A stretch of DNA of 64,000 nt from Schmidtea nova (taxonomy: Eukaryota). The position numbers and the translations under genes are program-made. Below, piece by piece: positions 27,112 to 52,867 of the stretch. The stretch spans positions 334,614,001 to 334,678,000 of the forward strand of contig CM097883.1 of the NCBI GenBank assembly GCA_044892505.1, read 5' to 3'. The notes beneath the pieces were generated by a model. It searched no databases. It was not told the origin of the DNA and worked only from the letters and a program-made list of their open reading frames with translations. Position 1 is the first letter of the stretch. Each line of letters begins with the position of its first letter.

Positions 27112-27459
27112 TGCTGCTGTGTTGGTTTGATGTACAACTGAGATCATTAAGATTTTATACGTTAGGGTGATCTCGCCAACATAAAAACATTCCCCCGCTG
27201 ACACCCATGATGTATCCCTAACTACTCATCATGTTGGTGCTGTGTCAACGTTGTGAAATGACAAGGCAGGTGAGCAACCTTTCGGCTACTATTCCCTTGT
27301 TTATTCACGGGTCCACCACTACCGATAGAAGGTGTCTGTGGATTTCTTTCGGTCCCACTTATGCTCTTTTCCATTGTTCTAGGGTGATCTACTCTTAGCG
27401 CATCTGCAGTTTAAATGAATCCGGGTTTTAGTTACATTCGATTCTCAGACATTCCACAA
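27112..27459 (-). repeat. Terminal 348-bp LTR stub (third copy of the LTR 3' end)
   Basis: Matches 29313-29660 and 55436-55783 (one mismatch seen, at 27117); forms the outer end next to the TSD. Confidence 0.92.
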
Positions 27460-28305
27460 GTCAATTAATGAGAACTCTGCTCCCTACGAGATTTATTTTT
27501 ACGGACGAGAACTATGCTCACTATGATGTTGCGTTTTATGACGAGACCTATGCTCACTAGGATGTTATTTTTATGACGAGACCTATGCTCACTATGAGAC
27601 CTATGCTCACGAACGAAAACTCGAAATATCATCTCTCAGTGGTTGCATGTGTTGCTTCGAGATGTTCCTCTCATTGGTCACTTATGCTTCTTCGGAGAAT
27701 CTATTGTCGTGTTTCGTTAAGTCCTATCTTTCAAGAACTATGGGCAAATCCTTTCTCTTTAGGACCCCTTTTATCATTTCCTTTCTTTCAAGGAATTCAT
27801 TTAACCTCGAGTTTTCCCTTTACTCGGCTCATCTACTACACCCCTTTATTCTGGTATCTATTTATCGACTTCTCTACTTGATTTTACTTTATGCGAGCTG
27901 ATTACGTGCCTTTCATCATCTACCACATTTCTCTACTCATCTTACTCATTTCATTGCTTTCGGTCTTTACTGATCAGTTTATCCTCCTATTTTTATAGTT
28001 TTTCTGCGCGCGCCTAAACCTCGTTGAGTTGTCCCTACCTTTCACCCCAACCAAAATATATAAAAAGATCGCATTGGTCCACTGATGCACGATGTGGTGA
28101 TCAGTCACATCACAAGAGTTTTCCAATATCCGCGATTGGATCCCTTTCTACACATCTCGGGTGAGTTGATCAGTTGGTTCCCCCCAATGGGTGCTTATCG
28201 GACTACTCGTGAGTAGCTCATAATTACTTAGGTCATTTTTACCAAATCATTGTTAAACCCTCATAATTTCAACAACAACTGCACTTGTTCAAAACTTTAT
28301 TTCTA

Positions 28306-28764
28306 TTACAAGTACACTGTTATTTTCTCGGATACGGGAAGGTTGCACATAGGACATCGTTCATTTATTTTACATTCATTACAGAATCGAAAATGCCCAC
28401 ACGGCAACAACATTATCTGTATCTTATTCATTTCACAGATATAACACGTCAGATATTGTCTCGTATGTTCGGTTGTTAGTCTTATCCATTCATCGTGTTT
28501 TGTTGTTAACTGTTGCTCTAGCCTGTGGCATTCGATATTCATTTCAGGGTTGTTTAATCTTTCTCTGTACCATTGATATCGTGTTGCGGTATCCACTGGG
28601 TTCTTATTCTCGCTTATGCTCATTATCATTTCGGCTCTTTCTGTGTTGTTTGTCGGCTCGTGATATCCTCCTACCTCGAGTCGTTTTAGCTTTCTCATTA
28701 TTATCTCCGTTGTCTCGTTGTTTGTTTCGAAAAACGTTTGCATTTCTTTTATTTTGTTCTCCAT
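28306..28764 (-). CDS. 152-aa protein with C-terminal IAP-type C3HC4 RING (copy in duplicated leader)
   Basis: CYIC..IMLLPCGHFRFCNEC..RCPMC..ITVYL; identical translation to 54429-54887. Confidence 0.88.
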   Translation of the reverse strand: MENKIKEMQTFFETNNETTEIIMRKLKRLEVGGYHEPTNNTERAEMIMSISENKNPVDTATRYQWYRERLNNPEMNIECHRLEQQLTTKHDEWIRLTTEHTRQYLTCYICEMNKIQIMLLPCGHFRFCNECKINERCPMCNLPVSEKITVYL

Positions 28765-29288
28765 CCCATGAATGAATTCTCATTAATTTTGTTATCGATT
28801 TTTATTTATTTATTTATCATTCCTATTCTATGGTAGCCCTACTGTTCGGTTTTTGCTGTTCTATTTCGCGCCACTGCGTATCCCCCCGTGTTCTTGAATG
28901 TCGCCCCGACATGATCATTGTTAGTTGCTCACACTCATACCATTTTCATGCACACTTTTCAGCATACTTTTACCTTACGTCATGCATACTTTTCCTCACT
29001 CTCATGCTGTTACTCCACATACTATTCATCATACTTCATTTATCCACATATTTTCACATTCACACTTTCATTCTCATGCATACTTTTATCATGCTCATCA
29101 TTTACTTATTTCACACTCATACTTTTATTTATTATTTTCCAACCCGATTCATTCTTGCTTCAGGACCCTCAAACCCTCTGTTATTCTTTACTTTACTTTT
29201 CCTCGCTAAATTCAATTCATCCCGGTTCATGCGCTCTAAGACTATCCGCCGATATCGAATTCACTTTTTCCCACAAAGATCGATTTAA

Positions 29289-29306
29289 TTCCCGGCTGAG
29301 CCCCCA
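29289..29306 (-). promoter_or_regulatory. Second primer-binding site (tRNA-Pro type) behind the 3' LTR
   Basis: Minus strand TGGGGGCTCAGCCGGGAA, 6 nt after the LTR CA end. Confidence 0.8.
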
Positions 29307-29698
29307 AATTTATGCTGGTGTGTTGGTTTGATGTACAACTGAGATCATTAAGATTTTATACGTTAGGGTGATCTCGCCAACATAAAAACATTCCCCCGCT
29401 GACACCCATGATGTATCCCTAACTACTCATCATGTTGGTGCTGTGTCAACGTTGTGAAATGACAAGGCAGGTGAGCAACCTTTCGGCTACTATTCCCTTG
29501 TTTATTCACGGGTCCACCACTACCGATAGAAGGTGTCTGTGGATTTCTTTCGGTCCCACTTATGCTCTTTTCCATTGTTCTAGGGTGATCTACTCTTAGC
29601 GCATCTGCAGTTTAAATGAATCCGGGTTTTAGTTACATTCGATTCTCAGACATTCCACAATCAAACAAGACAAGTCAAATCATTCGTTTACAATACAT

Positions 29699-30298
29699 TT
29701 ATTTACAATTTAATAACACCGAGGGTCTAATCACATTTAGGAGTTCTTGTTCAGATAGACCACTGAGTAAGTCTACTTCTATTCCTAGGCGATCGGCATA
29801 TGCACGTCGCTCTCTCCGCTTTTTCGCTCCTAAGCGATTCCTTCTCTTTGTTCGTTTTGAGCCTGCTGGAATTGTAGCTGTCACTGCAGTAGCTGTAGCT
29901 ATGGTCGATGCATTCTCCGTTTGGGTGCTCGTAGTCACCGCTATCGTGTCTACCCATCGATTAAAGGTGCTTGCTCTGATCCCGGGGCGCAATTGCTCGG
30001 TGATGAAATCTTGGGTCGACACCTTTAAGTAATTGGCCAGCTCTAATTTCAAGGCTGCAACCTCTCTGGCATATTCATCAGCTACTCGTTCCGCCCTGTA
30101 TCTAGCTTGCAGGATGGACTTAACTCTCTCTGGGTTAAACCATGTCGTCTTGATCCTCTGGTGCTCATCATTCAGCTGTCTTAACCGACTCTCCAGAACT
30201 CGTGAACGCGCCTTATGTTCTCGCGCCTCTTGCTTGAAATCTCTGTCCTTGGTTTCAGTCATGTCTGTAAATATATCATTAATTGTGGTATATGTCAT
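29699..30298 (-). CDS. LTR-encoded 199-aa coiled-coil protein with basic tail
   Basis: Intact sense ORF, identical in both LTRs; similar to ORF 2061-2585. Confidence 0.7.
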   Translation of the reverse strand: MTYTTINDIFTDMTETKDRDFKQEAREHKARSRVLESRLRQLNDEHQRIKTTWFNPERVKSILQARYRAERVADEYAREVAALKLELANYLKVSTQDFITEQLRPGIRASTFNRWVDTIAVTTSTQTENASTIATATAVTATIPAGSKRTKRRNRLGAKKRRERRAYADRLGIEVDLLSGLSEQELLNVIRPSVLLNCK

Positions 30299-30450
30299 TT
30301 GTCTGATCTCTCGGTCATCCTGTCGCCATTAAACAACTCCACCTTATCATCATGCTATTCTTATACACTCGAAAACAAAACAAGACCGTTCTCACACAAA
30401 TACATATATTTTTATATCTACGACAATCATTCTAGTTCGGGTTGTGTTGA

Positions 30451-31086
30451 TCAACTGAATGCTCTCAATTCCTGATCCGCAGTATGTTCATCGCGACGAA
30501 TTCCATTCTCCCAATACATTTCCGGGGCTGGGTTCCAACTCAGTTTATCTTTGTAGATAAACACCTCCCAGAGGCGAAGCTCCTCGAGCTCGGGGTGTTG
30601 TTCTAATGACACGCTTCCTGGCGCGTTGGAGTAGGCGAAGACTTCCTCAGTGTAGCGACACCGAGGCCTGTCTAACAGCGTGTATCCTAATCGATGAAGA
30701 GCCCTTCCCGTCATCATTTCATTACTCAATAACCAACGGGGTCGTTGCTGTCCATCGAGGAATTGATAGAACCATCGGTCGGTTCTTGGTTCGGCAGGGT
30801 CCAAGGTGGACATCCAATCGGGGTCTCCTTCCCATCGTAATTGTATCGTGAAGGCGCAAGCCGGAATATCGGCGGCTGCACTCATATGATGTCTTATCCA
30901 CCGGCGTAGGTGTCGACGTGCAATTTCGCTAATTCGGCGGGGAGCTTCTGTTTCTCCCTCGATGGTAGGGTTCCTCTTTGGCCGGATGATGGAACGGGTA
31001 CGTCGTTTTCTCTGGATGACATAATCCTCCACGTTCATATGTCGAGAGTCGATCAGATCCGTTTGGTATCCTTCTGTCTTTATCAT
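30451..31086 (-). CDS. LTR-encoded protein of unknown function (about 211 aa from the likely ATG at 31086; ORF track calls it from 31236)
   Basis: Intact sense ORF in both LTRs; ATG preceded by CTAAC...TTATCTTCAG|CCACATG. Confidence 0.7.
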   Translation of the reverse strand: MIKTEGYQTDLIDSRHMNVEDYVIQRKRRTRSIIRPKRNPTIEGETEAPRRISEIARRHLRRWIRHHMSAAADIPACAFTIQLRWEGDPDWMSTLDPAEPRTDRWFYQFLDGQQRPRWLLSNEMMTGRALHRLGYTLLDRPRCRYTEEVFAYSNAPGSVSLEQHPELEELRLWEVFIYKDKLSWNPAPEMYWENGIRRDEHTADQELRAFS

Positions 31087-32715
31087 GTGGCTGAAGATAA
31101 GAATTTTGTTAGTGTGATAGATTTGTCGGGTGAGCACAATTATTTGTACCCGTCGACCTACTCGACTTAAGGGTGAAACTCTGTAGGCTTCAGTCGGTGG
31201 TTCAGTGTTAAACCGGCCCGATGTTCGAGATACCATGTAGGTCGTATTTTATTATCATTGGTGGTGAATGCATTTATTCTATTGAGTATACTAGTTGGCC
31301 ACGCATAATTCATCGTGCCGTTTATGATAATTTATTTTTCATCTACGATGATCACTTGACCATTTATTATGTTTGAATGTTATTATCTGCGAGACATTTT
31401 TCGTTTCTATTCACAACAATCATGCTCAATCACTCCTCAGGTTTTATCTCCAAACATCATCCTCAACTACCAATGATCATCTTATCCGGGGAACACGCTC
31501 AATCCCTTACTCATACTAATTTGAGACTGGTCATACTATCGTCTCTTATTATGGGTGTTTACCTCTCATACCTTTCGAGGATTGCAAACGGGTGTTGAAA
31601 AAACATTGTGATTTATTATTAACCTCCGACACTGGTACTATTCGTCTCTTAACTTGTGTTACTTATGGCTCGCATGACCCTACTCTCGTCGTCATCAATG
31701 TCCCTGGTTACATATACCTACCGCTCGTTACGGTATTGCTACGACGTATATCGTTCGGGCTCAATTATCTTTACCTTTCTAGATATCCTATGTGCATTTA
31801 ACCCCTTTCCGTTTACTAAGTATTTAGTAAACCTATGGTCCCGCCGCATCAGCACCTCACATGGAAATGTGTTGTGCTGAGAGGCCCAAGAATCCGTCAG
31901 GCTGTTAGGCCTCCGGAAAACCTTATTGATTTTAATATGATTATAAAATTATGAGGGTTTAAACACATCAATAACATAACTCCAAATTACCTTTTATTTC
32001 CAATTCGGTTTTACAATGTCTTCCGTAAAAGTGACTGTTGTACTGATTTACCTTCAGTAAAAATGGCATTGTCAAATACTGATTTGACTTCAGTATTTAT
32101 ACTCAACCGGTGTTGTTGGTTAGCCAATCAGCATCGAGTATGTGTGTATGTTTGCTTCATTTTTTCATGTTGTCGGCTTTTTGCTGCCTAACTTAACTCA
32201 CCGATTTATTTGGTTAATCATGCGGTAAGTTTATTTTTTGTATGATTTAATTTTTATTTGATTTTGCTTTAGCTCTTCGGTGACATCCGCCCACGCGCTG
32301 TCATATTCAGATTTTATCTGCTTCGCATGAGTGAGTTCTTGAGTTTTATTTTGTTTTGGTTAATACTTTATTTCTTTTAGATGTTGCCGCTCATTTTGTT
32401 ACGCTTTGGTGTTGGTAATTTATTTTGTTGTTATTCTGTTGTAAATTTATTTTATTGATTGTATATTATTTTCAGATGCTGCTCGATTTGGCTGGCCCAA
32501 CATCACTCGGGGTCCCCTAAAATTGCGTCCCGCAATTACATGCATATACCTACATCAACATACATAAAAAGTTCGTGACAGAACTTACATGCAAAACCGC
32601 ATAAGGTGGTAGCTTTCATACGCATTTATACAAAGTCACACATTGTCATTGTCATGTTGATATTGTTTTTAGTTTATACACAGTTCAATGTTTCTGGCTC
32701 ATAGGGGTTCGATTC

Positions 32716-33240
32716 TCAGGTCCTTTCACTGGTTGACTGCATTTCGTATCGGGCTTGGATTTGTCGTAGATGGCTTCTCATTCTTTGTTGGGTTTTTGCT
32801 TCTCTTTTGGCGCATCTACACATTATCATTTGTTGTTGTTTGAGGCTTCTGATTCGGTACAGGGTATAGGTAATCACGATGATCAGGATGATTGTCAATA
32901 TTGTCATTGTGACTATTCCGACGATGATCCATCTGTTTCGGATTTCGGATTCGATTTGGGTTTGACCTTTGATTGGCTTTAGATGATCTTGAAATGTTCT
33001 ATGGACTTCTCGGATCTTCTCGATTTGATTGAATAGGGTTTGTAAGGGCTTGCGATGATCATGACTGATCCGCATTTGTCGGATTAATTGTTTCAAGTCT
33101 TCTCTGACTTCATTTAATTGTTTTTCAATCTCTTGGGATATCTCGTTCGACAGGGCTCTTTGTATTTCGGTTGTTGAACAGTTCATTATTGTTGTAGTTA
33201 ACATAATCGTTAGGATTGGTAGGGTTTTGAGCCAGTTCAT
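32716..33240 (-). CDS. 174-aa predicted type I membrane protein (signal peptide, helical ectodomain, TM, basic tail)
   Basis: MNWLKTLPILTIMLTTTIM N-terminus; WIIVGIVTMTILTIILIIVITYTLY hydrophobic segment; basic C-terminus with CRC. Confidence 0.8.
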   Translation of the reverse strand: MNWLKTLPILTIMLTTTIMNCSTTEIQRALSNEISQEIEKQLNEVREDLKQLIRQMRISHDHRKPLQTLFNQIEKIREVHRTFQDHLKPIKGQTQIESEIRNRWIIVGIVTMTILTIILIIVITYTLYRIRSLKQQQMIMCRCAKREAKTQQRMRSHLRQIQARYEMQSTSERT

Positions 33241-33314
33241 TTCTGATTATTCTACTGATTAATACCTGTTACATCGATTTGTACATTTCTTACACACGGA
33301 TTTTTCGCCTCTTT

Positions 33315-34475
33315 TTACACGCCCGTTTCCTCTGGTTCATGGAACCCTTCATCTTGGAGCTCCATTGGTGGTGGTGGTATAAACGGTAACCACACCACTC
33401 TACTTCTCCACATTGCGATTTCATCTTGATACGTTCGAGAGATTTGTATCTCTTCATCTAGCAGATACTCCATATAGTCTGATTGTTCGCTCAGAGTTTC
33501 AATTTGTCTTTCCATCTCCTCCACTTTTCTCTTCAGGGCTTCTACTTCTGTAGGTTCGGTTTCTACTTCTATGGTTTCCTTCTCTGCTTTCAGGGTTATT
33601 ATCTGCTGTTTCAGCTCCTCATTTTCTTTCGTCAAATTCGTTATGTTTTCCTCATAAGCTCGGTTTGATTCCGCATGTCTTTCTTTCACTGCTTTCAACT
33701 CCATTTTCTTTTTGGTCACTACTCCTTGGTAGCCATTTACGTCTCTTTCCAGACTTTCTTTTTCCCTGATCAACTTTTGTCTTTCCGCTTCCTCTTTCTG
33801 TCTAATACCTCGCATTTCTCCATTTATCATCTGTATTTGCCATTGCGTTTTCTTTAGTTCCTTTGCCTGTTCTCGAATAAATCGCTGTCGTTTTCGACTC
33901 CATTCTTTGTTTGCTTGTTCTTGTCGCTTTCTCTGTTCCAATTCCTCTTTCAATTCGTCTATCTCTTGATACAATTTCCAATCTTCGCTGTGTGCTGTCC
34001 TTCTGATTATCTCTTTGGCTTCTTTATACACTCGTTTCGACTCCATCTTCCAATGTCTCGCTTGAGCCTTGATTGCTAGTATTTTTACCTCCATCTTTTC
34101 CTCTTGTTTCTCCCTCTCTTCTCTTCGCGTTTTCATCATATTTTTATAATGTTCTGCTTGTTTCCTCATCAACTGATAGACCTCTTCTATCTTCTGTCGA
34201 CTTCGTACATTCGTTCCTTTTAGCTTCTCTATTTGTGTTGTCAGTTGTATCATCTCTTTATTCACTTCCTCGAGTTCTAGTTGATATAGCTCCATTCGTC
34301 TTTCGCATTTCAGTTTCTCGTAGAAATTGTTTGTCATCACTTCGTGTAATTCTCTGGTTCTTTGTTCTACTTCCACTTTATATCTCTTTTCGATTTCTCT
34401 TTCTATTGCTTCTCGTTCGTTCGCCATCTCGTTTCTCGTTTCATCTTCGATTACATGTTCATTTGCGTTTTCCAT
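33315..34475 (-). CDS. 386-aa long coiled-coil protein
   Basis: Intact ORF, E/K/R/Q-rich heptad character, no recognisable catalytic motif. Confidence 0.8.
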   Translation of the reverse strand: MENANEHVIEDETRNEMANEREAIEREIEKRYKVEVEQRTRELHEVMTNNFYEKLKCERRMELYQLELEEVNKEMIQLTTQIEKLKGTNVRSRQKIEEVYQLMRKQAEHYKNMMKTRREEREKQEEKMEVKILAIKAQARHWKMESKRVYKEAKEIIRRTAHSEDWKLYQEIDELKEELEQRKRQEQANKEWSRKRQRFIREQAKELKKTQWQIQMINGEMRGIRQKEEAERQKLIREKESLERDVNGYQGVVTKKKMELKAVKERHAESNRAYEENITNLTKENEELKQQIITLKAEKETIEVETEPTEVEALKRKVEEMERQIETLSEQSDYMEYLLDEEIQISRTYQDEIAMWRSRVVWLPFIPPPPMELQDEGFHEPEETGV

Positions 34476-34564
34476 TCTGTAATTTACAAATTTACACTTG
34501 TTATACTATATGTTTATTGTTGTTGTCGATTTTTATACTTTATTTACAGGGTCGTTCACTCTGA

Positions 34565-35977
34565 CTACTCTAACAATCCTTTCGTTGACTTCGTGTTCAT
34601 CACTGTTGTACTTGTTTTCTTTTCGATCTCCAACTCTACATATAAGTTGTCGTCGTACAACATTTCCCACATTGTTTGGTGTGGTATGAATTTTGGTTCT
34701 CCCGTCGCTAATGAACATTCTGTGGTTGGTCTTTTGTAAGCTTCGTGCTTACCATCAATTTTGAATACTCTCGCTATTGTTTCTTTCGAGTTTTTCACTC
34801 TCATTATAGCCTTTGTTTCTAGTGGCCATTCTAATATGTCGTCGTAACCACCTTTACACAACGCAAAGAATAATGACACATGCGTTTCCTTTCCTGATCC
34901 ATCTCCATTTGGATAAATTCTCATCCGGACTTTGTATCCGTTTTTCCACAGATAGAATGGTGGACTTGTTACCGACACTTGACTTCCTGCTTTTGCTGCT
35001 GTGAACTTTTCGTTGAAGTTCTTGATTTTCCATATATATGGTGCAACAGGTAAACTCTCGATATCCTCCGCATCTCGTATCCACATTTGATGTCGCACGT
35101 TTACTTCTTTTACCAATGTCTCTATGACTTTGATTTTCTCCATCATTTTCTCTCTGGTGAGCTCGAATTGCTCTCTCGTTTCCAGTAATAACTCCGTCAT
35201 TATCCTCTGAGATTCAATTTCTTTTCCCAGTTTCTGTATGGTTTGCTCCATTCCGTTCAAATTTTCTGTTAACATCTCGGCGTGTTGTACCGTTTCCGTT
35301 TCCAAATGCTCTTTCATCTCTTTGCTCGTTTTCTTTACTGCACATCCTTGTTTACTCCATACGCACTTTCTTGGTCTTGATTCGCATTGTTCCCAATGTT
35401 CTCTCAACATCACTTTTTCTCCGGTTCCACAATTACTTGGACAAATTCCTCTGAATTTTCCGCACACTTTCTCTTCTGCTACGTTGAGATGTTCTGTTTC
35501 GATTACTTCTCTCGTCTCTCTTTGTTCGCAGTATTGACACTCTATTATCTCTGCTTTGCACTCCTCCTTGTGATTTTTCGACTGCTTGATGGTTATCATC
35601 TGTTGACACTTTTCACATATCACTTTCTTGTTTTCGCATTTTCCCAGATGTTGTCTTAGCTCGATTATTTGTCCTTTCCACTCGCATGGTTGGTTTATAC
35701 ACTCTGTTTTTATCTTCCAGATCTCCTTTTGTATTGCTTTGTCTGGTTTAGTCTCGTTGATTAGTAGTTTATCGTCACACTCTGGACACTTTCTTGTCTC
35801 ACTTTCACTGATTATTTGTAATATACACTTGGTGCACATCCTGCATCCACATTCCGTTTGCCTCGGTTTTAACAGTAGATTTTTACACTTTACACACGTC
35901 ACATTTACTCCCCATTGTCGATTTTCTCTTCTTAGAATCTCGATCGTTTGGTAATCCGCTTCGCTTTCTGCTCTCAT
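34565..35977 (-). CDS. Full-length intronless TRAF-family protein (RING, TRAF zinc fingers, coiled coil, MATH/TRAF-C)
   Basis: CVKC..LLKPRQTECGCRMCTKC..CPEC; CEWKG..HLGKC; YIWKIKNF..SPPFY..GYKVRMRIYPNGDGSGKETHVSLFF..YDDILEWP. Confidence 0.96.
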   Translation of the reverse strand: MRAESEADYQTIEILRRENRQWGVNVTCVKCKNLLLKPRQTECGCRMCTKCILQIISESETRKCPECDDKLLINETKPDKAIQKEIWKIKTECINQPCEWKGQIIELRQHLGKCENKKVICEKCQQMITIKQSKNHKEECKAEIIECQYCEQRETREVIETEHLNVAEEKVCGKFRGICPSNCGTGEKVMLREHWEQCESRPRKCVWSKQGCAVKKTSKEMKEHLETETVQHAEMLTENLNGMEQTIQKLGKEIESQRIMTELLLETREQFELTREKMMEKIKVIETLVKEVNVRHQMWIRDAEDIESLPVAPYIWKIKNFNEKFTAAKAGSQVSVTSPPFYLWKNGYKVRMRIYPNGDGSGKETHVSLFFALCKGGYDDILEWPLETKAIMRVKNSKETIARVFKIDGKHEAYKRPTTECSLATGEPKFIPHQTMWEMLYDDNLYVELEIEKKTSTTVMNTKSTKGLLE

Positions 35978-36067
35978 TCTACAACAATATTTACATCAAT
36001 TTCCCCATATTTTTGATTTTTTCTGGTTCTTTATTTACACGTATTTACACAGTTTTCCGCTTATTCA

Positions 36068-36418
36068 CTATACATCCTCAGTTGAATCTGGCTCTGGATA
36101 CACGTCTATCTCATTTACAATCCAGCTCGTCCAACTATCCGGTATCTCTTCCTCTTCATGTCTCGTTAATCGGTCAATTTCCTCTGCTTGCCAGTTGTTT
36201 ACTTCATTTAATGTTCGATTCTCGTTCTGTAATTCGTTTATCTGTAGTTGTTGGATCTCGATTTTGTTCATTGCTTCGAAGTTACAGTTATAACTCTCGG
36301 TTAATAATTGCGTTTTGGCCGTCAACTGGCTCTGTAATTCATTTACTGTTCTGGCTAGCAGGTCACATTGTACTTTCCATCTTGTCATCATCGACATCTC
36401 TGTATTTTCTTGATTCAT
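36068..36418 (-). CDS. 116-aa short coiled-coil protein
   Basis: ATG-to-stop ORF co-oriented between pol and TRAF with short spacers. Confidence 0.65.
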   Translation of the reverse strand: MNQENTEMSMMTRWKVQCDLLARTVNELQSQLTAKTQLLTESYNCNFEAMNKIEIQQLQINELQNENRTLNEVNNWQAEEIDRLTRHEEEEIPDSWTSWIVNEIDVYPEPDSTEDV

Positions 36419-36541
36419 CGTTTTCCTAGATTATATACATCATTCTCTTTTTTCTGGTTTTATGTTTAATAATATTTATACCCATACGTATACGGTTATG
36501 CATTGGTTTTTACACTATTATTTACACTCATATTCCACCCT

Positions 36542-39500
36542 CTATACAATCACCACTGGTTTTCCTTCGTACAGTTCTTCGTCCTCGATCTGTACCCACA
36601 TCTCTTCGTGTTTTGATCGTCTTTTCAGTTCTTCTCGTACTGCTTTTGGTAGTTTTATGTTGTAGTTTGTGACCTTTACGTCCGGCCATTTTACTGCTAT
36701 GGTCTTATTCCTCATGCCATATCTCCAACAGACTATCATGATCGTTATCAGTGGTATACACCCTATGAATACCCCCATGCTGATTAATCCCATTATTGTT
36801 TTTCCAATGTTCATCTTCGGAGTTTCACTTTGGTTTATCATCACGCCATATTGACCTTTCCATTCCGCTTCCCATTGTTCGTATTGTTGTTGTCTCCGTC
36901 TGACTTCTTCGATCACTTTCTCTGGTTCCCATCTTTCTTGGCGGTTTGGTATTGTTTCTTCCGTCTCGGTTTGTTCTCTCTTCACACTCAATTCTCGGAA
37001 TTCTAACTTTCTGATTCTCCTCGTTATCGTTGTGTTCCTTGGCGTGTAATAGGTGTCGCACCTTTCCTGTGGATTTCCTTGTGCGTCCACTTCTTCGATT
37101 GCACACACTTCGTATTCTGCGTTTGTTTTCAACTTCCTCATTTCTACCTCGATTATTTCTCCTTTATCATTTGATGTCTTTTGACAGTTTCGTGGGGACT
37201 TTCCCATACTGTTTGGCATTAATGTCCAACAGATTTCTAGGACCTTTTTATGGATCTTCCATATTATCAGAGTCGTTGATTCTGGTTCGTTTTCTATTGT
37301 CGTCCCTTCTGTTGTTGTCTGTTGAACTCTCTGACTGTTGGTTGTCGTGGTCCTTCTTGACTTTCTTTTCCTCTGTCGACTTCCTCCCATTTCAATCGTT
37401 CTCGTACCGTTAATTTGCTCTGGCGTCTTGTACAGTTTGCACTCCAGGCTTCTTTGTATTATTTCTCTTATTCTTCGGATTACGCAAATTTCGTAGGCTT
37501 GTCCGACTTCGAATCCATTTAGTTGAAACGGGATTCCTCGTTCTCTCGTTTTGCATTGCGGTAGTACGTGACTGGTCGATGCTCCGATGTATTTTCTCCA
37601 ACACATCCCAATTGTTCTCCGACCAATGTTTTTTATCTCTACGGTTACTACTTCATTCGCAATCGTTTCTTGATCTTGTTTCTTTCTTTTTGGGAATTCA
37701 ATTATCTCCTTTGCTTGGAACACTTTACACTCGCTTGTGCCTGGTCTGTTTCCGTTTGCTGCTTTTTCCATGAGGCATAGTTCACATGTTTTCTCTGTTT
37801 CCATTTCAGTTATCTCGATTTCCTCGTTTGTCTCTGCCTCTCGACTTTCTCTTGTTTCGCTGATTCCAATTACTTCATTGTTTCGTCCCCAACATCTTCC
37901 ATTCGTTGTTCGTTGGTCTTGGACATTTACTAACGTCATCACGCTGATATCTATGTCTTCCATGATTCTCTTAATGAGGATTAATATTAATGCTACACAT
38001 ATCAATTCTGGTTGGAATGTTAATTTTCTCGCTGGATTTTTGGTTATTCTTTCTTTCTCTGTTCGGTTTCTGATTCCTTCTTCTGCTTCGGTTTGATTCT
38101 TCCCTTTCTCTGATTCCACTTCTGTTCTTCCCGTTGTCTCTTCGCTTCTTTTCCCAATCCATTTCTGTATTTTCAGCGCTTCTGTTGCTTTATATAATTG
38201 ACATGCAGTTACTTGAGGTGCTTTTGGTTCTCCTCTCTGCTTTATTGCGCATATTATGTATGACTTTTCTTTCTCCAACCCTTTGATTGGGATGACGTCT
38301 CGCTTCAAATCTGACAATATACACTTCAGCGTATCGTTTTTCCTCAGGTTTTCTTTCCAGCATATTCTTTCGTATACTTCGTTTCCTCTGATTATTTCCA
38401 GCGTGACGTATTGTTTCTTGGCTTCTCCTTGTCCGATGATTGTTATCAATATCGCAATACACAACATTTCTGGTCTCAAAAGTAGACTTCCTGTTCGTTT
38501 TCCATAGTTCGTACTTTCGTCTTTTGTTCCACTGTTTTCTCGTTCTTCGGCTTCTTCTTTTTTGTCGTTTTTCGTTGGCTTCGGTTCTTCTTGTCTTTCT
38601 TTTTCATTATTCTCTGTTCTTTTGTTGTCATTGTCTTCGTTGTTCTTTTCGTTGTTACTTTTGTCGTTGAAGTCTCTGTAACCACCCCCTGGTCCTTTGA
38701 AAATGTCGTCCTCGACATTAATTTCTTCAATCAATCTTTCATACGCTTGGACCGCGAGTGTGCTAGACTCGAATTCCCGTATTTCCATGTCTTTTGATGG
38801 TTCTATGTCTTTTAGTCTACTTTGCTTGATCGCTTCTTTGGCATTTGCCCATTCATTCACATATTTTCTGAACAAGTCTTTCCATCTTCCCATTCGTTCC
38901 TGTTCCTTTGAGTTGTTCGTAAATTTCAAATCTCTTCTCTTCAAGAATTCTTCTACTATCTCTGGCTTTTTGTGTCTTAATAACGCGCTTCTGATACACC
39001 AATTCTGATTCTGTTCCATATGGTCATTGATCTTGAACACTGGTTCCTTGGTTATCGGATTCGCCCATGTTAGTAATGCTCTTGTTTTCTCTATGTCGTG
39101 TATCATTACTGTTAGACTGAAGTTCTTTACGTTATTCGCCAGGTATTCGATATCGTCTTGTTTCTTGATGGACTTTATGAACTTGATCATCTCGAAGTTG
39201 TTCCACTGTATTGCGATGTCTATGATGGAATTATTCTTTCCATTTTTCCCTTCGATTTTTGTTCCTGCTTCGTATAACTCGTTTAGCACTTTGCAGTTCG
39301 TCTTCTTCCTCGCTGCGATTATCATGATTGTATCTCCGTTATCATCAACCGTGTTCATGTCTGCTTCGCATTTGACCATCGCTTTCGTTATTTCCAGCAC
39401 TTCGTTTTCTTTCTTTCGACGTAATGCCCAGTGTATCGGCAATCTCCCATCCTTTGATAATAGGAATGCTACTGGCATTTGATTTTTGATCGTTTCTATG

Positions 39501-42500
39501 TCACTCTCGTTATAATCTCCTTGTGCGTATCTGTGTAATTTCTCTGTAATTGCTCCTAGTATCTCCAACGAGTTTTTATTCTCTTTGAATTCCGATAATC
39601 TTTCTTGCGCTTTTGCTACGATTGCGTCTAATCTCTCTTGATAATCGGCTTTTGCATTGAACAACACTGCTTTGCTTCTTATTTGCGTTTGCATCTGTTT
39701 CATTCGTTGGTCTTGATACACTGCTTGTCTGAAGAACTGTCCATATTTCAATGCTTCTATCAGCTCTTTATATCGCTTGCTTATTTCTTTGTGCTGCGTT
39801 TGGATGTCATAGAAATGTTCGAAGCTCATATCCGGATTCCATTGTTTATCACACCATCTCTTGATTAATCCGATTAATTCTTTTTTTCTGTCTTCCAACT
39901 TGTATTCTCTTGGGTTTTCGCTAACCCGTAACGTATCTCTCGCTATCAACACTGCAAGTGTTTTTGGATCGTATGTTACCTCTAGTAGATGTTTCAGTAA
40001 CGCATTTTCTCCCCTTGTGAATACTTCATTACAATCTATGACCCATGAATCTCTTTCTGGTCGTTTCCACTTTAACAGTATTCTCCAGGTTTTACTGTTT
40101 CTTACTCCGATTGCTTGTTTCATGATTGATCCTCTGGTTATTTCATCGATTTCCCACGTGGCATTTTCCGTGATATACTTCAGTATTCGGTGATTCGCTC
40201 TGTCAATTGCATGATTCAAGAATGTTCGTCCTTCTTTATCTTTTGTCATCCAACTTGATCTGGTGTTTCCGAATAGTTTGACTATTTCATCATCTCTTCC
40301 ATGAATCGTCATCATCATGAGTGGAGTGATTCCTTCCCAATTCACTTTGTCAATTTCTCCTCCACCTTCGAGTATCATCTCTACGATCTCTTTCACTTTT
40401 TCGTTTCCACTGTGCTTGATTGCATTGTGCAACGCTGTGTTACCGTCTTTGTCTTGTAGATTCAATGTTTGAGGGATTTCCTCTAGCAGCGTTCTTGTTA
40501 TTGGATGCGCTGATCTGTCTTTTGCATACTCCATTACATTTTTCCGCACTTCTGCCAATATATTGAAATCGAGCCACCATTTCCATTCTGGTATAAGTTC
40601 TCTGGTCTTCTTTGCCAGTTCTTTGATATCTATTGCTTCTCTTCGGTTGTCTTCTAGACTTGTTAGCGGCTTTTGTTGTACTCGCAACATACTGATTCTC
40701 GCCGTCTGTGATCTTGTCATCACCCGTTTCTCTGGTGATAGAGTTGCTGTCTTTGGTATTTTTCTGCATCTACATGCATTCACGTATATTGGTCTTACCA
40801 CTGGATTGTTCACCAATCGTACTCTCACATTATTTTCGTTTACTGTTGTTATTTCGTATGGCCCTTTGCCTGGTCGTTGGAGTTTCTTGACTGTACCGGG
40901 TATTATCTCTGGTGTCTCGATGATCACCCAATTTCCAACTTTTAAATCATGTGCTTTCACATTCTTTTTCTGATCATGTAGATCCTTGTAACTCTCTTGA
41001 TAGAACTTGATGTTCAGTTCCGCCGTTTTCCAGATTTCTTGCATTCTTTCTTTGAACTTCGTCACGTAATCGTCAACCTCCATGTACTGTGATAATGGTG
41101 GTTGATATTCTAAATCAATCGGTAAGTTGCAATCTCTTCCGTACATCAGTTGGAATGGACTTAGCTTTGTTGCCGCATGTATTGACATTCTATATGCCAT
41201 TAAACACAGGTTTATATATTCGTCCCAGTCAGTCTGATGTTTGCTGACGTAATTTGACAACATGCGTATTAGCGTTCCATTGAATCTTTCTGTTTGACCG
41301 TTCGTTTGTGGATGGTATGGGGATGTCCGTAATTTCGCAATTCGGAAGTAATTCGTAACTTCGTCCAATATTTCACTCATGAAATTTGTTCCTTGATCCG
41401 TTAGGATTTTCTTTGGTGTTCCGTATCTGCAGCATATCTCTTCCACCAATATTCTCGCGACTGTTTTCGCTTTTTGATCCGGTATTGCGAACGCTTCTGG
41501 GAACTTTGTTAGGTAGTCCGTGACTACTAATATGTACTGATTTCCTTTTAAACTTTCTGGCAATGGTCCAACTACATCCATTGCTATCGTCGCCATTGGT
41601 TCTGCAGGTATTGGCATAGGTTTTAGTGGTGTTTTCCACTTCGTTCCGACGTTCTTTCTTGTTGCACAGGTTAAGCAGTTCTTTATCCATTCTTTCACAT
41701 CATCTTCCATGGTTGGCCAAAAATACTTTTGTCTCAATCTCCCGATTGTCTTTTTCGCTGACATATGTCCGCCTAATTTTCCGTCATGATATTGAGTCAT
41801 GATTTCCTTTCGCCTATTCGCAGGTAAGCACATCAATCTTCGTTCTCCATCTTGTATCAATAACCATCCTTTTTCCATCACATATCTATGTTGATATTTC
41901 TGCATATGTTCGCGCAACGTTTGGTTCTTGCCGAATATTTCTATTTCCCTTTCTTTCAAATACTTGCTGATCAATCCCAACTCCTCGTCTTCGAGTTGAT
42001 CTTTCCTTAATTCGCTGAAATCCAAATCCTCCGCTATTAATGCACATATTTTCAGAGCGTTTAGGTTCACCAATTCTGGGAATGTAAATCTTGACATGCA
42101 ATCTGCGTTTGCATTTGCTTTTCCTGCTTTAAACTTTATGAATGGCGAGTATTCCTGTAACTGCATCGCCCAACGCATCAATCTACTTGACGATTCTTTA
42201 TGTTGGCCTAACCATACCAATGGTTGATGATCCGTCGTGATATATATTTCATGACCCCACAGTAGGTATTTGAAATGCTTGATTGCCAATATTATCGCAT
42301 AGGCTTCTCTTTCCGTGACTGAGTAATTCCTTTCATGTTTCCTGAATGTTCGACTGTAGTACCCAATTACTCTTTCCTTGCCTTCTTCATCGAATTGGCC
42401 TAGTACTGCTCCTGCTGCGTATCCACTTGCATCTGTTGCCAACAAAAATGGCTTCTTAAAATCTGGATGGACCAATATTGGTGCTGTAATCAGTTTGTCT

Positions 42501-45500
42501 CGTAATGTCTCAAATGCTGCTTGTTGTTCTTTTCCCCATATAAACGACACATCTTGTCTTACCAATTCTTGCATTGGCTTTGATATTCCTGCATAGTCCT
42601 TGATAAACTTTCGATAATATCCACACAATCCCAAAAATTCTTGTATTTGCGTCACTGTCTTTGGTGGTGGACATTCTTTGACTTTTTCGATATTCCTTGG
42701 ATCTGGTTCTTTTCCTTTTGCTGATACAATGTGACCTAAGAATGTCACTTTCTCTTTTGCCCAATCGCACTTTGACGGCTTCAATTTCAGTTTCCACTGT
42801 CTCAATTTCACGAACACATTTCTGATATCTTGCAGGTGATCTTCGAATGTTGCGGAGTAGATCAATAGATCGTCAATATACACCATGCATTGTTTTATGC
42901 CATGTGTTACGAAATTCATGCATCTCTGGAATGATGCTGGCGCGTTTGTTAACCCAAACGGCATTTTCTTGAATTGGTACAGATCTCGTCCGATTGTAAA
43001 TGCTGTCTTCTCTTTATCCTCGTCTTTCATTTTGATCTGCCAATATCCGCTTTTTAAATCCAGTGACGTGAAATAGGCTGCTCCTTGTAACGTCAACAAC
43101 ATTTCGTTTATGTCTGGCAGTGGGTACGTATCTCTTTTCGTAACTGCGTTCAACCGTCTGTAATCGATACAGAATCTCTGAGTTCCATCCTTCTTTTTCA
43201 CCATCACCACCGGGAATTGCCAGGGTGAGCAACTGGGTTCGATGACCTCTGCATCTAACATCTTTTGTACCTCTTCTTCTGCCACTGCTTTTTGAGCTTC
43301 TGCCAATTTATATGGTCGTAATGCGATTGGCGTTTCGTCCGTCAACGGTATCGTATGTAATGTTACATCACATGTTCCCAAATCCAAATCTGATGCTGCG
43401 AATATATCTTTATATTCCATCAACAGTTTCTGTAACTGTTCTTTTTGTCGTTCGTCTAACAACACACTGTCGATTTTCCATGGTGATTCGCCTTTGCTTT
43501 TCTCATTCTTGTCTGGTATTTCGATTTCGGACATGGGTGTTAATTTACCCAATCTCTCATTCTCGTATATTATCTTGTCCTCTTCGTCGAAATTTACCAT
43601 ATTAATTGGTATCTCACCTTCTTGGTTTATGGTGACCAGTTCTCTTGCCATTGGTAATTCTATCTTTGCTTCGAACTTTTTACTTGGTTCGAATATCATA
43701 TCCCCCTTTATTGTTGAATCGATCTTGACATAGCACATCATTTCGTGCCTCGCTGGTACTACTATTTGTTCTGCACTTGCCACTTTAACTTTCATTCTGC
43801 AAATTTTTCCTGTTCTATCTTTTAATTTCATTGCTCCTAGATCGATTACGATCTCCTTGAACAGGTCTGGCATCAGGTCAGTTCCAATAATACATGGTAC
43901 ACTCAGCGATGGTATTACAGCGATGTACGTGTTGATTTCTGCACCTCGATGCTTAATTTTTACAAACCATCTTCCGGCTACTTCTACTGTCTCCTGACTG
44001 CACGCGATTACATGTACGTTTGTCTTTTCTATTTCTCTTTGGTTTTTCTCTGGTATATAGTTGATGTCGATCGCCGAAATATTCGCGCCTGTATCGATCA
44101 TGGCTTCAATTTCTCTTCCGTTTATTTCTACGGCTGTTGTTAAAATCGGTCCCATATTTGTGGACATAACTGCTATCGTGTGCGTGTCTTCCAACGAGTC
44201 TACACTTCCACCTCGTTTTACTTTGCATCCTTCTGGAATTATCGGGTATATACTGGTCATCGGCATCATCTGCATCATATTCGGCTTCGCTTTGTATATC
44301 GGTTCGTTATACATTGACTGAGGTGGAGCGCTGTATCTCCAATTCTCAACTGCACTCTTTTCGTTATACTGTAGAATCTGGTTTATATTCGCTTGTCCTC
44401 CTTGATCGTCATCGTCATCCTCATTGCTTGAGTCATCCTGTGTTCGATATCCCCTCACTCTTTCCCATAATCCTTTCCTTTCTTTCTTTAGTTGTCGTCT
44501 TGCTTGCTCGTCTTGCATTATCTTTTTGAATTTCCTTCCAACATCTTCATTTGTTCCTTTCATTTTCGCAAGTATCTTCAACAATCTTTTTATTCGATGA
44601 ATGTCTTTTGAGTGTCCATGCAACACCATCGTTTTCGCAAGGAATGGTAAGAATCCTACTACCATTTTCCAATTCACTTTCTTTTCTCTCTTGTAGATGT
44701 CGAAACACGCTAACATTTGCGTTATTATCACTCTGACGATTTGTATTATCAATATAACACCCAGTATTTCAGCCATCATTTGTCCGAATATCAGGAATCT
44801 TCCCCACATTGCCTTCATCATATTTTCCGTGGCTTTCTTGAAATGTGCCGGTGACAACAGCAGTTCGTAATTCGGTCCTTCTCGATAATTCGTTCCTCCC
44901 GTTATCGTTACGATATTTGACAGTAATGCTTCTCTTCTTGCCGGGAATAATATATTCTGCCTTGCCGCTTCTAAATCTTTTGGACTATAGATTCCGTTGT
45001 TTGAGACATCTACGTCGCTGAACTGTCTATCTTTCGATAACTGCATCAGTTCAAATTCTCTTGGTGCTAATACTTCGGTTCTTCCTGGGAACATAACCCA
45101 TTTGCCATCTGGTTTCTGATAAAGCGGTCCGTACGCATTACTACAGTTGAACGGATTTGGTTCAAACCCTGGTGGATTGATGATTCTCGTCACCGGTTGA
45201 ACATATCGTACTTTTCCTTTGTAATCGATTTCTAGTTCGTTTGTACATTGTCCAGGTTTCAACTGCGTTGTTGCTGCTAGCGATGCGTGTGTCTTTTCGC
45301 AAATGTATACATACATTGCTTCTCCAACCACTCTTCCGAAATGTCCTTCTCTCAGTGGTAATAACGGCATCGCGCTATCTGGATTCGTAATCGCTACGGC
45401 CAACTTTGTCTTTAATATTTCCCGATTCAGTATACAATCGTTGTTTATCAGATCGTAGTACACTTTTTGCAATGAGGCTTGACCTCTATGGAATAAGAAA

Positions 45501-46774: not shown

Positions 46775-47195
46775 ATTGTATATCGTATACGAGATTGCTA
46801 CCAGATATTTGCTGTCCGTCTGCTCCGTTAAGTAGTCTTTTTATTAACATCGTGGTTCCTTGCCAATCCAGATGATTCGATTTTGTTTTGGCTTTTATCA
46901 ATTCTGGCATAATCGGTGCTATTGCATTGTGTAGCATCCTTGCCTTTGTACTAGGTTCGTTTATCCTCCACAAATTCTTTAATTCCGGGTCGATTATCGC
47001 CAACACATCCATTATCGTTTTGGTGAGCCATTCTTCTCCTTGACAGACTTGATTCTCCTCTTTTCCTCTGATTTCTGCGATTTTATCCAGTTTCTTCAAG
47101 CAAATCTCCCATTGCTCTTGTCTCCTTTCTTCCCTTGTCTTTGGGATTGTTGTTGCTGGATCTATCTTTGGTCTTCCTCTTGGTCGTTTCTCCAT
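46719..47195 (-). CDS. 158-aa ORF with AT-hook (KRPRGRPK) and N-terminal half of a Bcl-2-like domain; +1 shift joins it to the polyprotein
   Basis: Overlaps the polyprotein frame; removing one A from the A5 run (plus strand T 46838-46842) fuses the two. Confidence 0.6.
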   Translation of the reverse strand: MEKRPRGRPKIDPATTIPKTREERRQEQWEICLKKLDKIAEIRGKEENQVCQGEEWLTKTIMDVLAIIDPELKNLWRINEPSTKARMLHNAIAPIMPELIKAKTKSNHLDWQGTTMLIKRLLNGADGQQISGSNLVYDIQFANAKPRESEVKSDGKTY

Positions 47196-47256
47196 TCCAG
47201 TTCCGGTTTCTACAAATCTCGTTGCTCTTCCTGTTTCTTCTGTAACATCTCTTCCT

Positions 47257-48459
47257 TTATTTCGCTCGTTGTTCTAACCATCTTTCCATTTCTTGGGTAA
47301 ACTGTGGTTGTTCTTGCTCATCTTCCGAATCGTTCACCATTTCTATGACTACCTCCTGTTCCACTCCTTGATCGTCGATTTCTGCTGGTGACGTTATTGG
47401 CATCTCTATTATTCTGTCAAAAATATTCGCCGTTGGTTTTTGAGTCAACTTCGTTAATTCTTCTATCGCTTCGTCACTGTCTGTTAATATCTCATCCACA
47501 TCATACGCTTCTGGCGGTGTTCTCTCTCTCGTTTTGATTGGTGTTGTCCTTGCTTGTCCCGAACTTGTTCCTGGGGTCATTGTTGACTTCATCGGACTTG
47601 GTGTACTCATGCTTCCTTTCGTTTTCTTTTCCTCTTTAAACTTCAGTGGTTGACCCACTATTTGTGCCACTGTTAACGTATTCATTAGATCCAATTGCAC
47701 TGGTGTCAGCCAGATTTCCAAATTATTATCCAACGATCGTCCTTGATGTTGCAGGTGGAATGGTAGTTCGTACATCAGTTTCTCTTTAATACTTTTCACT
47801 TTCTCTGTTAGCATCACCCAAAACTCTTCTTTTCTTTGATTCGGATACATTATCCTCAAATGTATTTTCTGTGGCGTTTCCTCCGTGAATTCTCTGTTTC
47901 TCCACTTTTTTATTACATCGTCTAGTTGCTCTGGACACCACTCATTAACTCTCTTGTATTCTGCTATCGCTTTGGCTACTTTTCTCAAGTTCGTTATGTC
48001 TTCTCCATTTGAGATTATGAATTGTGCTAAGCCTTTTATTGTTTGTCTTTTTCCCCGAGTATTTCCTCTCAACAGCTCGATCAATTCACTCGTTTTCTGT
48101 TTCTCCAATTCTGCCCATATTACTGCAGTTTCTGGTCCGTCTAAGTCCGTTGGTAGTAACCTCCTTGTTACCATACATATCCGTTTCGTATTCGGTTCAT
48201 ATCTGTCTTCTCCTTCTGGATCTTCTTCATACACGCCTCTTTTCACTTTCCAACATTTCTCTTTGTTATCCCATTGTTTTTCTACTGGCGTCAGTCGTCG
48301 TCTGTTAAGATCCAATTCTCCCAATATGGTCTCCCATTCTGGCTTCATCTGCCAGTTCCGATAGATTTCTACTATCTGTCTCAACTTGCGCATAACGTCC
48401 TCTTGTCGTTGCTTTCTCCCTTCTTCATCTCTTGGTGTTGTTCTTTGCACATCATCCAT
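47257..48459 (-). CDS. 400-aa ORF containing a ubiquitin/SUMO-like domain and an S/T/P-rich tail
   Basis: KIHLRIMYPNQRKEEFWV..KVKSIKEKL..LQHQGRSLDNN..TLTVAQIVG at about 47654-47869; in frame with the upstream ORF across one TAA. Confidence 0.7.
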   Translation of the reverse strand: MDDVQRTTPRDEEGRKQRQEDVMRKLRQIVEIYRNWQMKPEWETILGELDLNRRRLTPVEKQWDNKEKCWKVKRGVYEEDPEGEDRYEPNTKRICMVTRRLLPTDLDGPETAVIWAELEKQKTSELIELLRGNTRGKRQTIKGLAQFIISNGEDITNLRKVAKAIAEYKRVNEWCPEQLDDVIKKWRNREFTEETPQKIHLRIMYPNQRKEEFWVMLTEKVKSIKEKLMYELPFHLQHQGRSLDNNLEIWLTPVQLDLMNTLTVAQIVGQPLKFKEEKKTKGSMSTPSPMKSTMTPGTSSGQARTTPIKTRERTPPEAYDVDEILTDSDEAIEELTKLTQKPTANIFDRIIEMPITSPAEIDDQGVEQEVVIEMVNDSEDEQEQPQFTQEMERWLEQRAK

Positions 48460-48525
48460 TCTGATGACATGTATTGTCTGATAATTATCCCATATGCCGA
48501 TTTTATACGCTCGTCTTTTGTCACG

Positions 48526-49275
48526 TTAATTCAGTAGATGTTCTTTGTATTTTATAGCGATGTCATCCTCGAATTCATCTTCCCGTTCTCGTTGTAATAT
48601 CGTCTCATTGATGACATCTACTATTTCTCCCACTTTACTATCTGGTATTACCTCAATTTGTCTTGTCTCTTCGTTCGGTAATCTCACAGTAATCTTCAGA
48701 TCTGATACCTCTCCTCGTTTAAACATTTCTTTTCCCATCTTTGCAATTAGCTTGTCCGTTTTGAAATTCGAATGCCTCGTTTGACTTGTATCTCGTATGT
48801 TCTCGATACACTGTTTCAAATTCTCATACTCGCTTTTCGTCAATTCCTTTCGATGTTTCTTGATTTGTTGGATGATCTGTTCTATCATCGTATTCAAATT
48901 CTCTGCTAAGATTCTTTCCTTTGCCTCTAGCAACTGAGGTTTTATTCTCATCTCATAACACGTATTCGCTTCTTTGACGATTCCTTGTAAGTTCTCTTCC
49001 TTCTTGGTGTTGCATATAGATAACGTTGTTATTTCTCCTGGCCAGATGCCTGTATCTATCATATGCGTTCTTTTTCTTACCAATCCGTTTTCTGAGTATA
49101 TGAATTTGTCTTTGTACGAGCTTCCCAATCTGTCCTCAACCCATCGATATATTCCATCCGTCATTGGGTTCTTTATCCAGATTCTCGGTGAACACTCGTT
49201 TATCCATATTTGTATTACGTATTCGTTCAGTGGTTCTTTCAATAACTTCTCTATGAACTCTTGTATTACTCTCAC
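48526..49275 (-). CDS. 249-codon ORF after gag; ubiquitin-like domain runs across its stop codon
   Basis: LKITVRLPNEETRQIEVIPDSKVGEI..IKYKEHLLN*RDKRRAYKIGIWDNYQTIHVIR; GTG start overlaps the gag TGA. Confidence 0.65.
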   Translation of the reverse strand: MRVIQEFIEKLLKEPLNEYVIQIWINECSPRIWIKNPMTDGIYRWVEDRLGSSYKDKFIYSENGLVRKRTHMIDTGIWPGEITTLSICNTKKEENLQGIVKEANTCYEMRIKPQLLEAKERILAENLNTMIEQIIQQIKKHRKELTKSEYENLKQCIENIRDTSQTRHSNFKTDKLIAKMGKEMFKRGEVSDLKITVRLPNEETRQIEVIPDSKVGEIVDVINETILQREREDEFEDDIAIKYKEHLLN

Positions 49276-52408: not shown

Positions 52409-52867
52409 CTGCTGGGTTTTCCAGTCAGCGCTTTTAATCTCACCTTTTATCTCGAGCTCTGTTCTCTCAACTTCACTCATTATCTCATTAGCCTGCTGGG
52501 TTTTCCAGTCAGCGCTTTTAATCTCACCTTTTACTGTTATCTCGTTATTCTCGACCACGACTGTCGTTTCATTAGCCTGCTGGGTTTTCCAGTCAGCGCT
52601 TTATTACTCTCCATTTATCTCTTTACTATCGACTTTTAACTGCTCTTTATTTCGATGATCATCGCCTTTGACCTGCTGGGTTATCCAGTCAGCGTCCTCA
52701 GTTTCACCACTTTGTTATTACTCACTTTTATTCTCTCGATCTTTCCTGATCGTTATCATTGACCTGCTGGGTTTTCCAGACAGCGTCTTTACCACTTTAC
52801 TGTCTTAACAAACCGGTTTCATTTTATTCCCATCGAATCTCATGGTCTGCTGGGTTTTCCAGTCAGC
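52409..52867 (-). promoter_or_regulatory. Array of six conserved 21-nt hairpins in the 5' leader
   Basis: ctgctgggttttccagtcagc at 52409, 52493, 52577, 52673, 52764, 52847; spacing 83-96 nt. Confidence 0.75.

Follow-up and report, generated by a model that had tools for sequence, protein, structure and literature searches.

Acceptor-ended spacers before the cargo genes of a Burro-like giant Gypsy element of Schmidtea nova: a case for retrovirus-like leader splicing

The closest described systems are the planarian Burro and GYPSM1 elements, which are about 30 kb long, carry env in frame between gag and protease, contain ankyrin repeats, and are associated with MATH/TRAF, RING and BIR domains (PMC6431247). 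These features recur in an element on the minus strand of a 64,000-nucleotide stretch of Schmidtea nova DNA (assembly GCA_044892505.1, contig CM097883.1, positions 334,614,001 to 334,678,000), hereafter the window, in which positions are counted from the first letter; the element belongs to a group of copies here called family A, and the BIR domain is found in its sister family B. It is a Burro-like giant Gypsy element with long terminal repeats (LTRs) and an env gene, and it is matched by the published description. The TRAF gene of the present element stands separately downstream of pol, whereas it is part of open reading frame (ORF) 1 in Burro1 and of an upstream ORF in D. tigrina (PMC6431247). 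The present element also differs in carrying two genes within its LTR, in the four to seven genes downstream that are set apart by spacers ending in an acceptor, and in the lack of a BCL2 hit. How the accessory ORFs of Burro are expressed is a point on which section 7 of the published account is silent (PMC6431247). The conserved spacers described below suggest an answer, namely that a leader exon made in the LTR would be cis-spliced to an acceptor ahead of each gene, a reading to which a probability of roughly 55% is assigned.

Complex retroviruses, including the foamy viruses, resemble this plan in having one LTR promoter, a short leader with a major donor, and an acceptor before each accessory gene (PMC3694450, PMC4402516). 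A further likeness is that a poly(A)-like hexamer adjoins the donor in each LTR; in foamy viruses, however, the donor is upstream of the signal, whereas here the hexamer lies just upstream of the donor (PMC3694450). The present element further differs from the complex retroviruses in being of the Ty3/Gypsy type, in having up to about ten genes, and in giving sequence evidence for the first splice only. In the adenovirus major late unit, one leader is spliced to many acceptors over about 25 kb, and each block has a proven poly(A) site, whereas block-wise poly(A) sites are unsupported here. The Tor elements of Oikopleura are also env-bearing and Gypsy-like, live in a trans-splicing animal, and in the case of Tor3a splice from the LTR (PMC4402516); they differ in having one downstream gene and, in Tor3b/4b, an internal promoter, and that account nowhere mentions trans-splicing (PMC4402516). 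Finally, flatworm operons resolved by spliced-leader (SL) trans-splicing likewise have same-strand genes about 100 nt apart and UUNYAG-like acceptors (PMC8629364, PMC12582326), but here the poly(A) signal is not above chance and a cis donor is present and apparently used. The literature search returned no account of Burro cargo expression or of a retroelement using SL trans-splicing; Burro transcript data could sit in supplements. A recent paper is said to deal with Burro1 in planarian stem cells and could already show transcript structures.

The four cargo ORFs are preceded, on the minus strand, by a 3397-aa ORF encoding env, pol and ankyrin repeats. They were compared in the 30 best-scoring copies fetched for family A, which has at least 39 copies (39 scored at 94-100%, of 1077 candidates); the 30 copies are related by descent and so are not independent. 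Spacer 1 (36419..36541, 123 nt) holds TGTA at 36526, 36514 and 36439 as well as CCAAT and TATA-like words, and its TAG end (36426) precedes cargo gene 1 (36068..36418), open in 30/30 copies, whose 116-aa product has no confident family assignment and a 36% identical homologue in family B. Spacer 2 (35978..36067, 90 nt), with three TGTAAATA words, AATAAA and a TAG end at 35979, leads to the TRAF-like gene of 470 aa (34565..35977; RING, zinc fingers and MATH by Pfam; open in 28/30 copies). Next come spacer 3 (34476..34564, 89 nt; TGTAAATA, AATAAA, CAG end at 34477) and cargo gene 3 (33315..34475, open in 26/30 copies), which encodes a likely coiled-coil protein of 386 aa for which a homologue search found none. 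Spacer 4 (33241..33314, 74 nt) has three TGTA words, neither AATAAA nor ATTAAA, and a CAG end at 33243; it is followed by cargo gene 4 (32716..33240, 174 aa, open in 30/30 copies), a likely membrane protein with two hydrophobic stretches. The lengths and positions of the spacers and the four ends quoted in a first-pass annotation of the window agree letter for letter with these data. A donor-like GTAAG word is also seen in spacer 4 (33293-33289), about 50 nt before the acceptor, and could permit a mini-intron.

The YAG trinucleotides (Y, pyrimidine) that end spacers 1-4 stand 7, 1, 1 and 2 nt before the ATG, so that all four lie within 7 nt (shuffle P 0.003, for a set of spacers chosen by the first-pass annotation). 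This rule is also passed by 105 of 427 ATGs inside coding regions; a single case therefore means little, and an independent test is required. At every one of the four spacers, the YAG is kept in 30/30 copies. Over the same copies, variation is 0.017 in spacer columns and 0.006 in TGTA columns, against 0.055-0.065 at third codon positions. As judged from this pattern, in which the spacers are about 3.5 times less variable than third codon positions, the spacers are under selection. A YAG before the ATG is also found at the two genes of the LTR and at the RING gene. A CAG-A-ATG before a 400-aa ORF (48459) was considered as a further acceptor and rejected as a chance example, being inside the polyprotein frame of other copies.

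The independent test was provided by family B, which was reached through its divergent LTR genes. Its polyprotein and TRAF are about 30% and 35% identical to those of family A (27-37% for the proteins overall), and at the DNA level the two families match only in short patches, coding or polypurine, with no blastn hit in any spacer. Seven cargo genes, among them those for a TRAF and a BIR-RING protein, are present in family B, and the rule fixed on family A, a YAG within 7 nt of the ATG, is obeyed by 6/7 of its spacers (P 9e-5). At each of the six genes that pass, every copy compared (17-20 per gene) retains the YAG. When a T-rich stretch is demanded as well, 3/4 spacers of family A and 4/7 of family B still pass (expected, 0.10 and 0.25). 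Acceptor-like starts also occur at the RING gene and the first ORF of family B and at the downstream gene of two smaller families. The first ORF of family B (L241-L248, L157-L176; 2128 first-look candidates) is about 1000 aa long and has a protease-like and an ankyrin part, and no gag, env, reverse transcriptase or integrase hit was obtained for it in the copies seen. In these copies family B appears to be non-autonomous, although its seven cargo genes, the IAP-like BIR-RING gene among them, are still mostly open. In two other LTR families, C and D, no cargo array was found upstream in 20 and 20 stretches, except for locus L130, whose LTR differs from family B's own.

A donor that could serve these acceptors is predicted in the LTR. 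The putative promoter and leader exon (58114..58252) comprise a CCAAT box at 58251, a TATA box at 58224, an initiator A at 58203, taken as the start site, and a leader of 90 nt that ends in an AATAAA-containing word. The layout recurs in several LTR families, in each of which a promoter-like head is followed by a short, variable leader and then by a fixed donor. Among copies the leader (58203-58114; L207-L216) is 72-102 nt long and strongly reshuffled, with both ends fixed. Directly behind it, the donor AG/GTA is present in 27/30 family A LTRs and in 65/72 promoter-like LTR heads over all loci, the 72 including repeated LTRs and probable false heads; GTAAG takes this place in 8/8 family B LTRs. 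The predicted intron (57214..58113, 900 nt) would run from the donor GT at 58113 to a CAG that ends at 57214, 4 nt before the ATG of LTR gene 1 (56574..57209), a gene without a Pfam family that encodes 211 aa when counted from the ATG following the acceptor and 261 aa when counted from an ATG further upstream. This CAG is present in 9/9 copies, in which the 4-6 nt separating it from the ATG are variable. LTR gene 2 (55822..56421, 199 aa) has a CAG 4 nt before its ATG, and the 152-aa RING-finger gene (54429..54887; PF13920 on its identical second copy, context kept in 10/10 copies with the gene) has one 3 nt ahead. The 3' LTR (29313..32503, by self-blastn and sequence) repeats the donor GT at 31990 and the acceptor end at 31091.

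An AATAAA hexamer abuts the donor (58114-58121, 31991-31998) in families A and C, not in B or D. It is a candidate LTR poly(A) signal that may be coupled to the donor, and with this assignment U5 would be about 2.7 kb long and gene-bearing.

Three copies depart from the 27/30 donor. L021 has other sequence behind a truncated leader, L023 has a variant donor, and L022 lacks the intron: its leader end is fused straight to the start of LTR gene 1, with the predicted intron precisely gone. Exon 2 of L022 matches L213 at 96% from its first base, which in L213 is preceded by CAG, and the counterpart of the gap in L213 is a 941-nt GT-AG segment. We infer that L022 derives from a retrotransposed cis-spliced RNA. 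An RNA spliced to LTR gene 1 keeps the primer-binding site and can thus be retrotransposed, whereas RNAs spliced to the cargo acceptors would lose it, so that the absence of genomic copies of the latter kind is weak counter-evidence. The site itself, which we take to be at 55400-55430, a few bases behind the LTR, resembles a tRNA-Pro site. The proposal that the spacer-terminal AGs are splice acceptors is well supported: the pattern recurs in a distant sister family, and in L022 the LTR donor is joined to an acceptor of like design. The proposed route of splicing from one LTR leader exon has positive evidence from L022 at the first LTR gene; at the four cargo AGs themselves no junction was found.

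According to the favored mechanism, the LTR promoter would give an RNA with a leader exon of about 90 nt ending at the conserved donor. This leader would be joined to the conserved YAG ahead of each cargo ATG, 22-25 kb away, giving each cargo gene a message of its own in which it would stand as the first reading frame. The same donor would, as we infer, reach all four cargo acceptors, and the unspliced RNA would serve as the genome. Cis-splicing is favored because it needs only existing parts, which have once been seen joined.

Several observations weigh against this mechanism. To reach the cargo, the donor must skip up to seven acceptors; an ATG is present at leader position +11 in 23/25 copies; family A lacks a YAG within 7 nt of its first gag ATG; and the last of the seven family B cargo genes has its YAG 17 nt away and fails the rule in 18/18 copies. 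L022 represents one event and LTR gene 1 only, its junction has a 2-nt AG overlap that a plain deletion could use too, and its partner LTR was not found in the 19 kb where it was expected. Patterns for the altered sequence that a leader-to-cargo junction would produce at the TRAF and 386-aa starts gave 1, 0 and 0 matches, the starts of genes 1 and 4 not being searched, and no contig joint was at an acceptor among those listed (15 of 109 in one set and 9 in a second). The four read sets used for the joints are, by their even cover and an adapter-like loose end, presumably DNA. One apparent spliced copy, L237 (1500-1510), was rejected: it has a 94-nt deletion that removes nearly exactly spacer 2, and as the AG is retained it is not a clean splice.

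Also to be set against leader splicing are the CCAAT and TATA-like words that spacer 1 holds in 30/30 copies, which raise the question of internal promoters. If TATAAA and TGTAAATA acted as TATA or Forkhead sites, a short message could begin in every spacer, or a single one in spacer 1, where CCAAT and the TATA-like word are at LTR-like spacing; the env gene of Oikopleura Tor3b/4b does use an internal promoter (PMC4402516). Two smaller env-bearing families, L061 (7540-7953) and L064 (9194-9589), have CCAAT, TATA, donor-like and acceptor-like words in a post-pol spacer of about 400 nt, a candidate internal promoter with its own leader intron. Such promoters would, however, leave the YAG before each ATG unexplained; CCAAT is missing from spacers 2-4 of nearly all copies and was not seen in spacer 1 of family B, and the TGTA motif is strand-specific and tied to the upstream stop. 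Internal promoters, which have a genuine basis in spacer 1 and in the two smaller families, are regarded as improbable.

A competitor of more weight than internal promoters, although still unlikely, is that the leader serves the first gene or genes in cis, while the downstream cargo (TRAF, IAP-like and membrane proteins) is run as a true operon by the host machinery, cut by 3'-end formation and SL trans-splicing, with the stop-anchored UGUA marking each cut. The same-strand spacers, all of 74-282 nt (11/11), fit flatworm operons, in which the spacing peaks at about 100 bp in Macrostomum (PMC8629364) and has a median of 99 bp in S. mansoni (PMC12582326). Moreover, 6/11 acceptors match the UUNYAG motif of flatworm SL acceptors (PMC12582326), Schmidtea polychroa trans-splices (PMC10899757), and no exon skipping over 25 kb would be needed. 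The fit in spacer length and acceptor motif is circumstantial. UUNYAG, however, is also an ordinary acceptor and not specific to trans-splicing; the sole junction found is cis, and no SL-like tail was found ahead of the two starts tested (TRAF and 386-aa). Flatworm spliced leaders end in ATG, and with acceptor-to-ATG offsets of 7, 1, 1 and 2 in family A and 2, 1, 5, 1, 3, 3 and 17 in family B, this ATG would be out of frame at 9/11 sites, no better than random. As an argument against SL this is weak and was rejected as non-discriminating, because the LTR leader also has an ATG.

An operon of this kind requires every spacer to contain a poly(A) site. AATAAA or ATTAAA had been noted in three of the spacers by the first-pass annotation, but these words are not confirmed as a signal. 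The hexamers A(A/T)TAAA number 21 across the 11 spacers of the two families, against 22.9 expected, i.e., chance, in a count that did not score single-mismatch variants. AATAAA is kept in spacers 2 and 3 in 30/30 copies, but the ATTAAA of spacer 1 is private to the window copy (1/30) and spacer 4 has neither hexamer in 30/30, so that spacers 1 and 4 lack both hexamers in nearly all copies and the poly(A) half of the operon analogy is unsupported. A common 3' end at the 3' LTR is ranked slightly ahead of message ends in each spacer. In flatworms, cis- and trans-splicing commonly use the same acceptors (PMC12582326), so mixed use of the two routes is possible.

The spacers contain a second conserved element besides the acceptor. 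TGTA occurs 13 times in the family A spacers, against 5.4 expected, and TGTAAA 8 times, against 1.3, values that 0/2000 shuffles reach; a further count gives 41 TGTA against 6.4 expected and 5 against 9.1 for the reverse complement, an enrichment of the sense strand only. The first TGTA starts 14-20 nt after the stop codon in 10/11 spacers, a range taken from these same spacers; when it is set on family A alone (15-20), 4/7 family B spacers comply (P 3.5e-4). The octamer TGTAHATA is present at 12-22 nt in 3/4 spacers of family A and 5/7 of family B. By comparison, host TRAF-like genes (30 loci, of which 11 were dropped as duplicates or for an early stop) have TGTA at 14-20 nt in 1/19 cases and the octamer in 0/19. 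The repeated TGTAAA(T/A) noted earlier in the spacers does not occur in spacer 4, where TGTA is found in three other words. Of the word said to be shared by two spacers, ACCAGAAAAAA occurs twice in 1/30 copies only, while the shorter CAGAAAAA does so in 27/30. The TGTAAATA-type word would presumably match a Pumilio-type site, going by its consensus.

The best reading of a word that is strand-specific and keeps a set distance from the stop is an RNA element, and the TGTA word is likely one that acts on the finished message. Its reading as a site for cleavage factor (CFIm) is disfavored and weak because the poly(A) signals of S. mediterranea are reported without an upstream UGUA (PMC5068929). 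By analogy, TGTAAATA words could possibly shield messages with long 3' tails from nonsense-mediated decay. The stability element of Rous sarcoma virus is likewise a protein-binding element right behind a stop codon with a position-dependent effect (PMC4764554); it is, however, about 400 nt long, pyrimidine-rich and bound by PTBP1, whereas the words here are short UGUA words, and the parallel is an analogy only (PMC4764554).

The fixed distance between motif and stop would also suit a link to terminating ribosomes, and hence a scheme in which no RNA is cut at all: one long RNA would be read by re-initiation or internal entry, and the motifs would be translation signals or captured host exon edges. 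Some host TRAF-like exons do start behind an acceptor close to the ATG (e.g., L079 and L092). Against this, the spacers contain 0-5 extra ATGs, the YAG is kept in unrelated spacer sequences, and L022 shows the donor joined to a similarly built acceptor. This is the most doubtful of the alternatives. The host TRAF-like genes form a large cluster on G000:C2 at about 405-455 Mb (L079-L108); most other MATH hits are the TRAF of the element, and TRAF counts in such genomes may hence be inflated.

The whole insertion (27113..58626, minus strand; self-blastn, LTR ends from 10 other copies, and flanks) consists of a main element of 29.3 kb (58626-29313; self-blastn and LTR ends of other copies) and a partial tandem piece (29312-27113; self-blastn and flanks). 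It is flanked by a 4-bp target-site duplication, with the tandem piece inside the duplication. The tandem piece holds the start of the internal region with the RING gene and then the LTR end, is 99% identical to the main element, and is either a very recent rearrangement or an assembly artifact. A 5040-bp repeat found by self-blastn was rejected as the LTR; it includes the partial tandem piece, and the true 5' LTR (55436..58626) is 3.19 kb long with TG...CA ends, and similarity to the 3' LTRs of 10/10 other copies stops at 55432-55436. A purine-rich tract lies ahead of the 3' LTR at about 32520.

The coding frame of gag, env, protease, reverse transcriptase, RNase H, integrase and ankyrin repeats (36542..51446; Pfam and alignment to other copies) is split into five ORFs in the window copy. 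Its gag side is a single open frame in 7/10 other copies, the remaining three being one with a stop, one partial and one with other sequence. By Pfam, PF24664, a mononegavirus-like fusion protein (env) domain, spans aa 341-682 in frame before protease (868-957), reverse transcriptase (1179) and integrase (1712), and this position before protease, reverse transcriptase, RNase H and integrase is the hallmark of the planarian Burro elements (PMC6431247). No BIR or BCL2-like domain was found by Pfam in 12 window proteins, no profile-profile search having been run, and Rfam and tRNA searches gave 0 hits each. The 5' internal region before gag has tandem repeats of about 84-96 nt and of 19 nt (52399-52887 and 53174-53420) and a conserved T-rich AAG acceptor-like word at 52021-52010, some 570 nt ahead of the first gag ATG; at least 121 open codons precede that ATG in frame, which leaves the gag start ambiguous. 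Next to the element is an intact-looking 637-aa ORF (22634-24547), hAT-family transposase-like by eye.

The feature is real and selected, and it is best read as probable retrovirus-like leader splicing, new in form, within a known type of giant retrotransposon. Burro elements have been known for their size and their apoptosis- and ubiquitin-related cargo, and the mode by which this cargo is expressed is undescribed in the literature searched. On this evidence, a Gypsy element would express about eight to ten genes by a splicing plan like that of the complex retroviruses, one that is conserved between families with only about 30% protein identity, a non-autonomous family included. The stop-anchored UGUA word would be a separate RNA element, unlike the usual poly(A) context of the host. 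Because the predicted junctions have exact coordinates, cis- and SL-splicing can be told apart; the SL outcome, if true, would mean a transposon that exploits the trans-splicing of its host, and would be far more surprising than cis-splicing.

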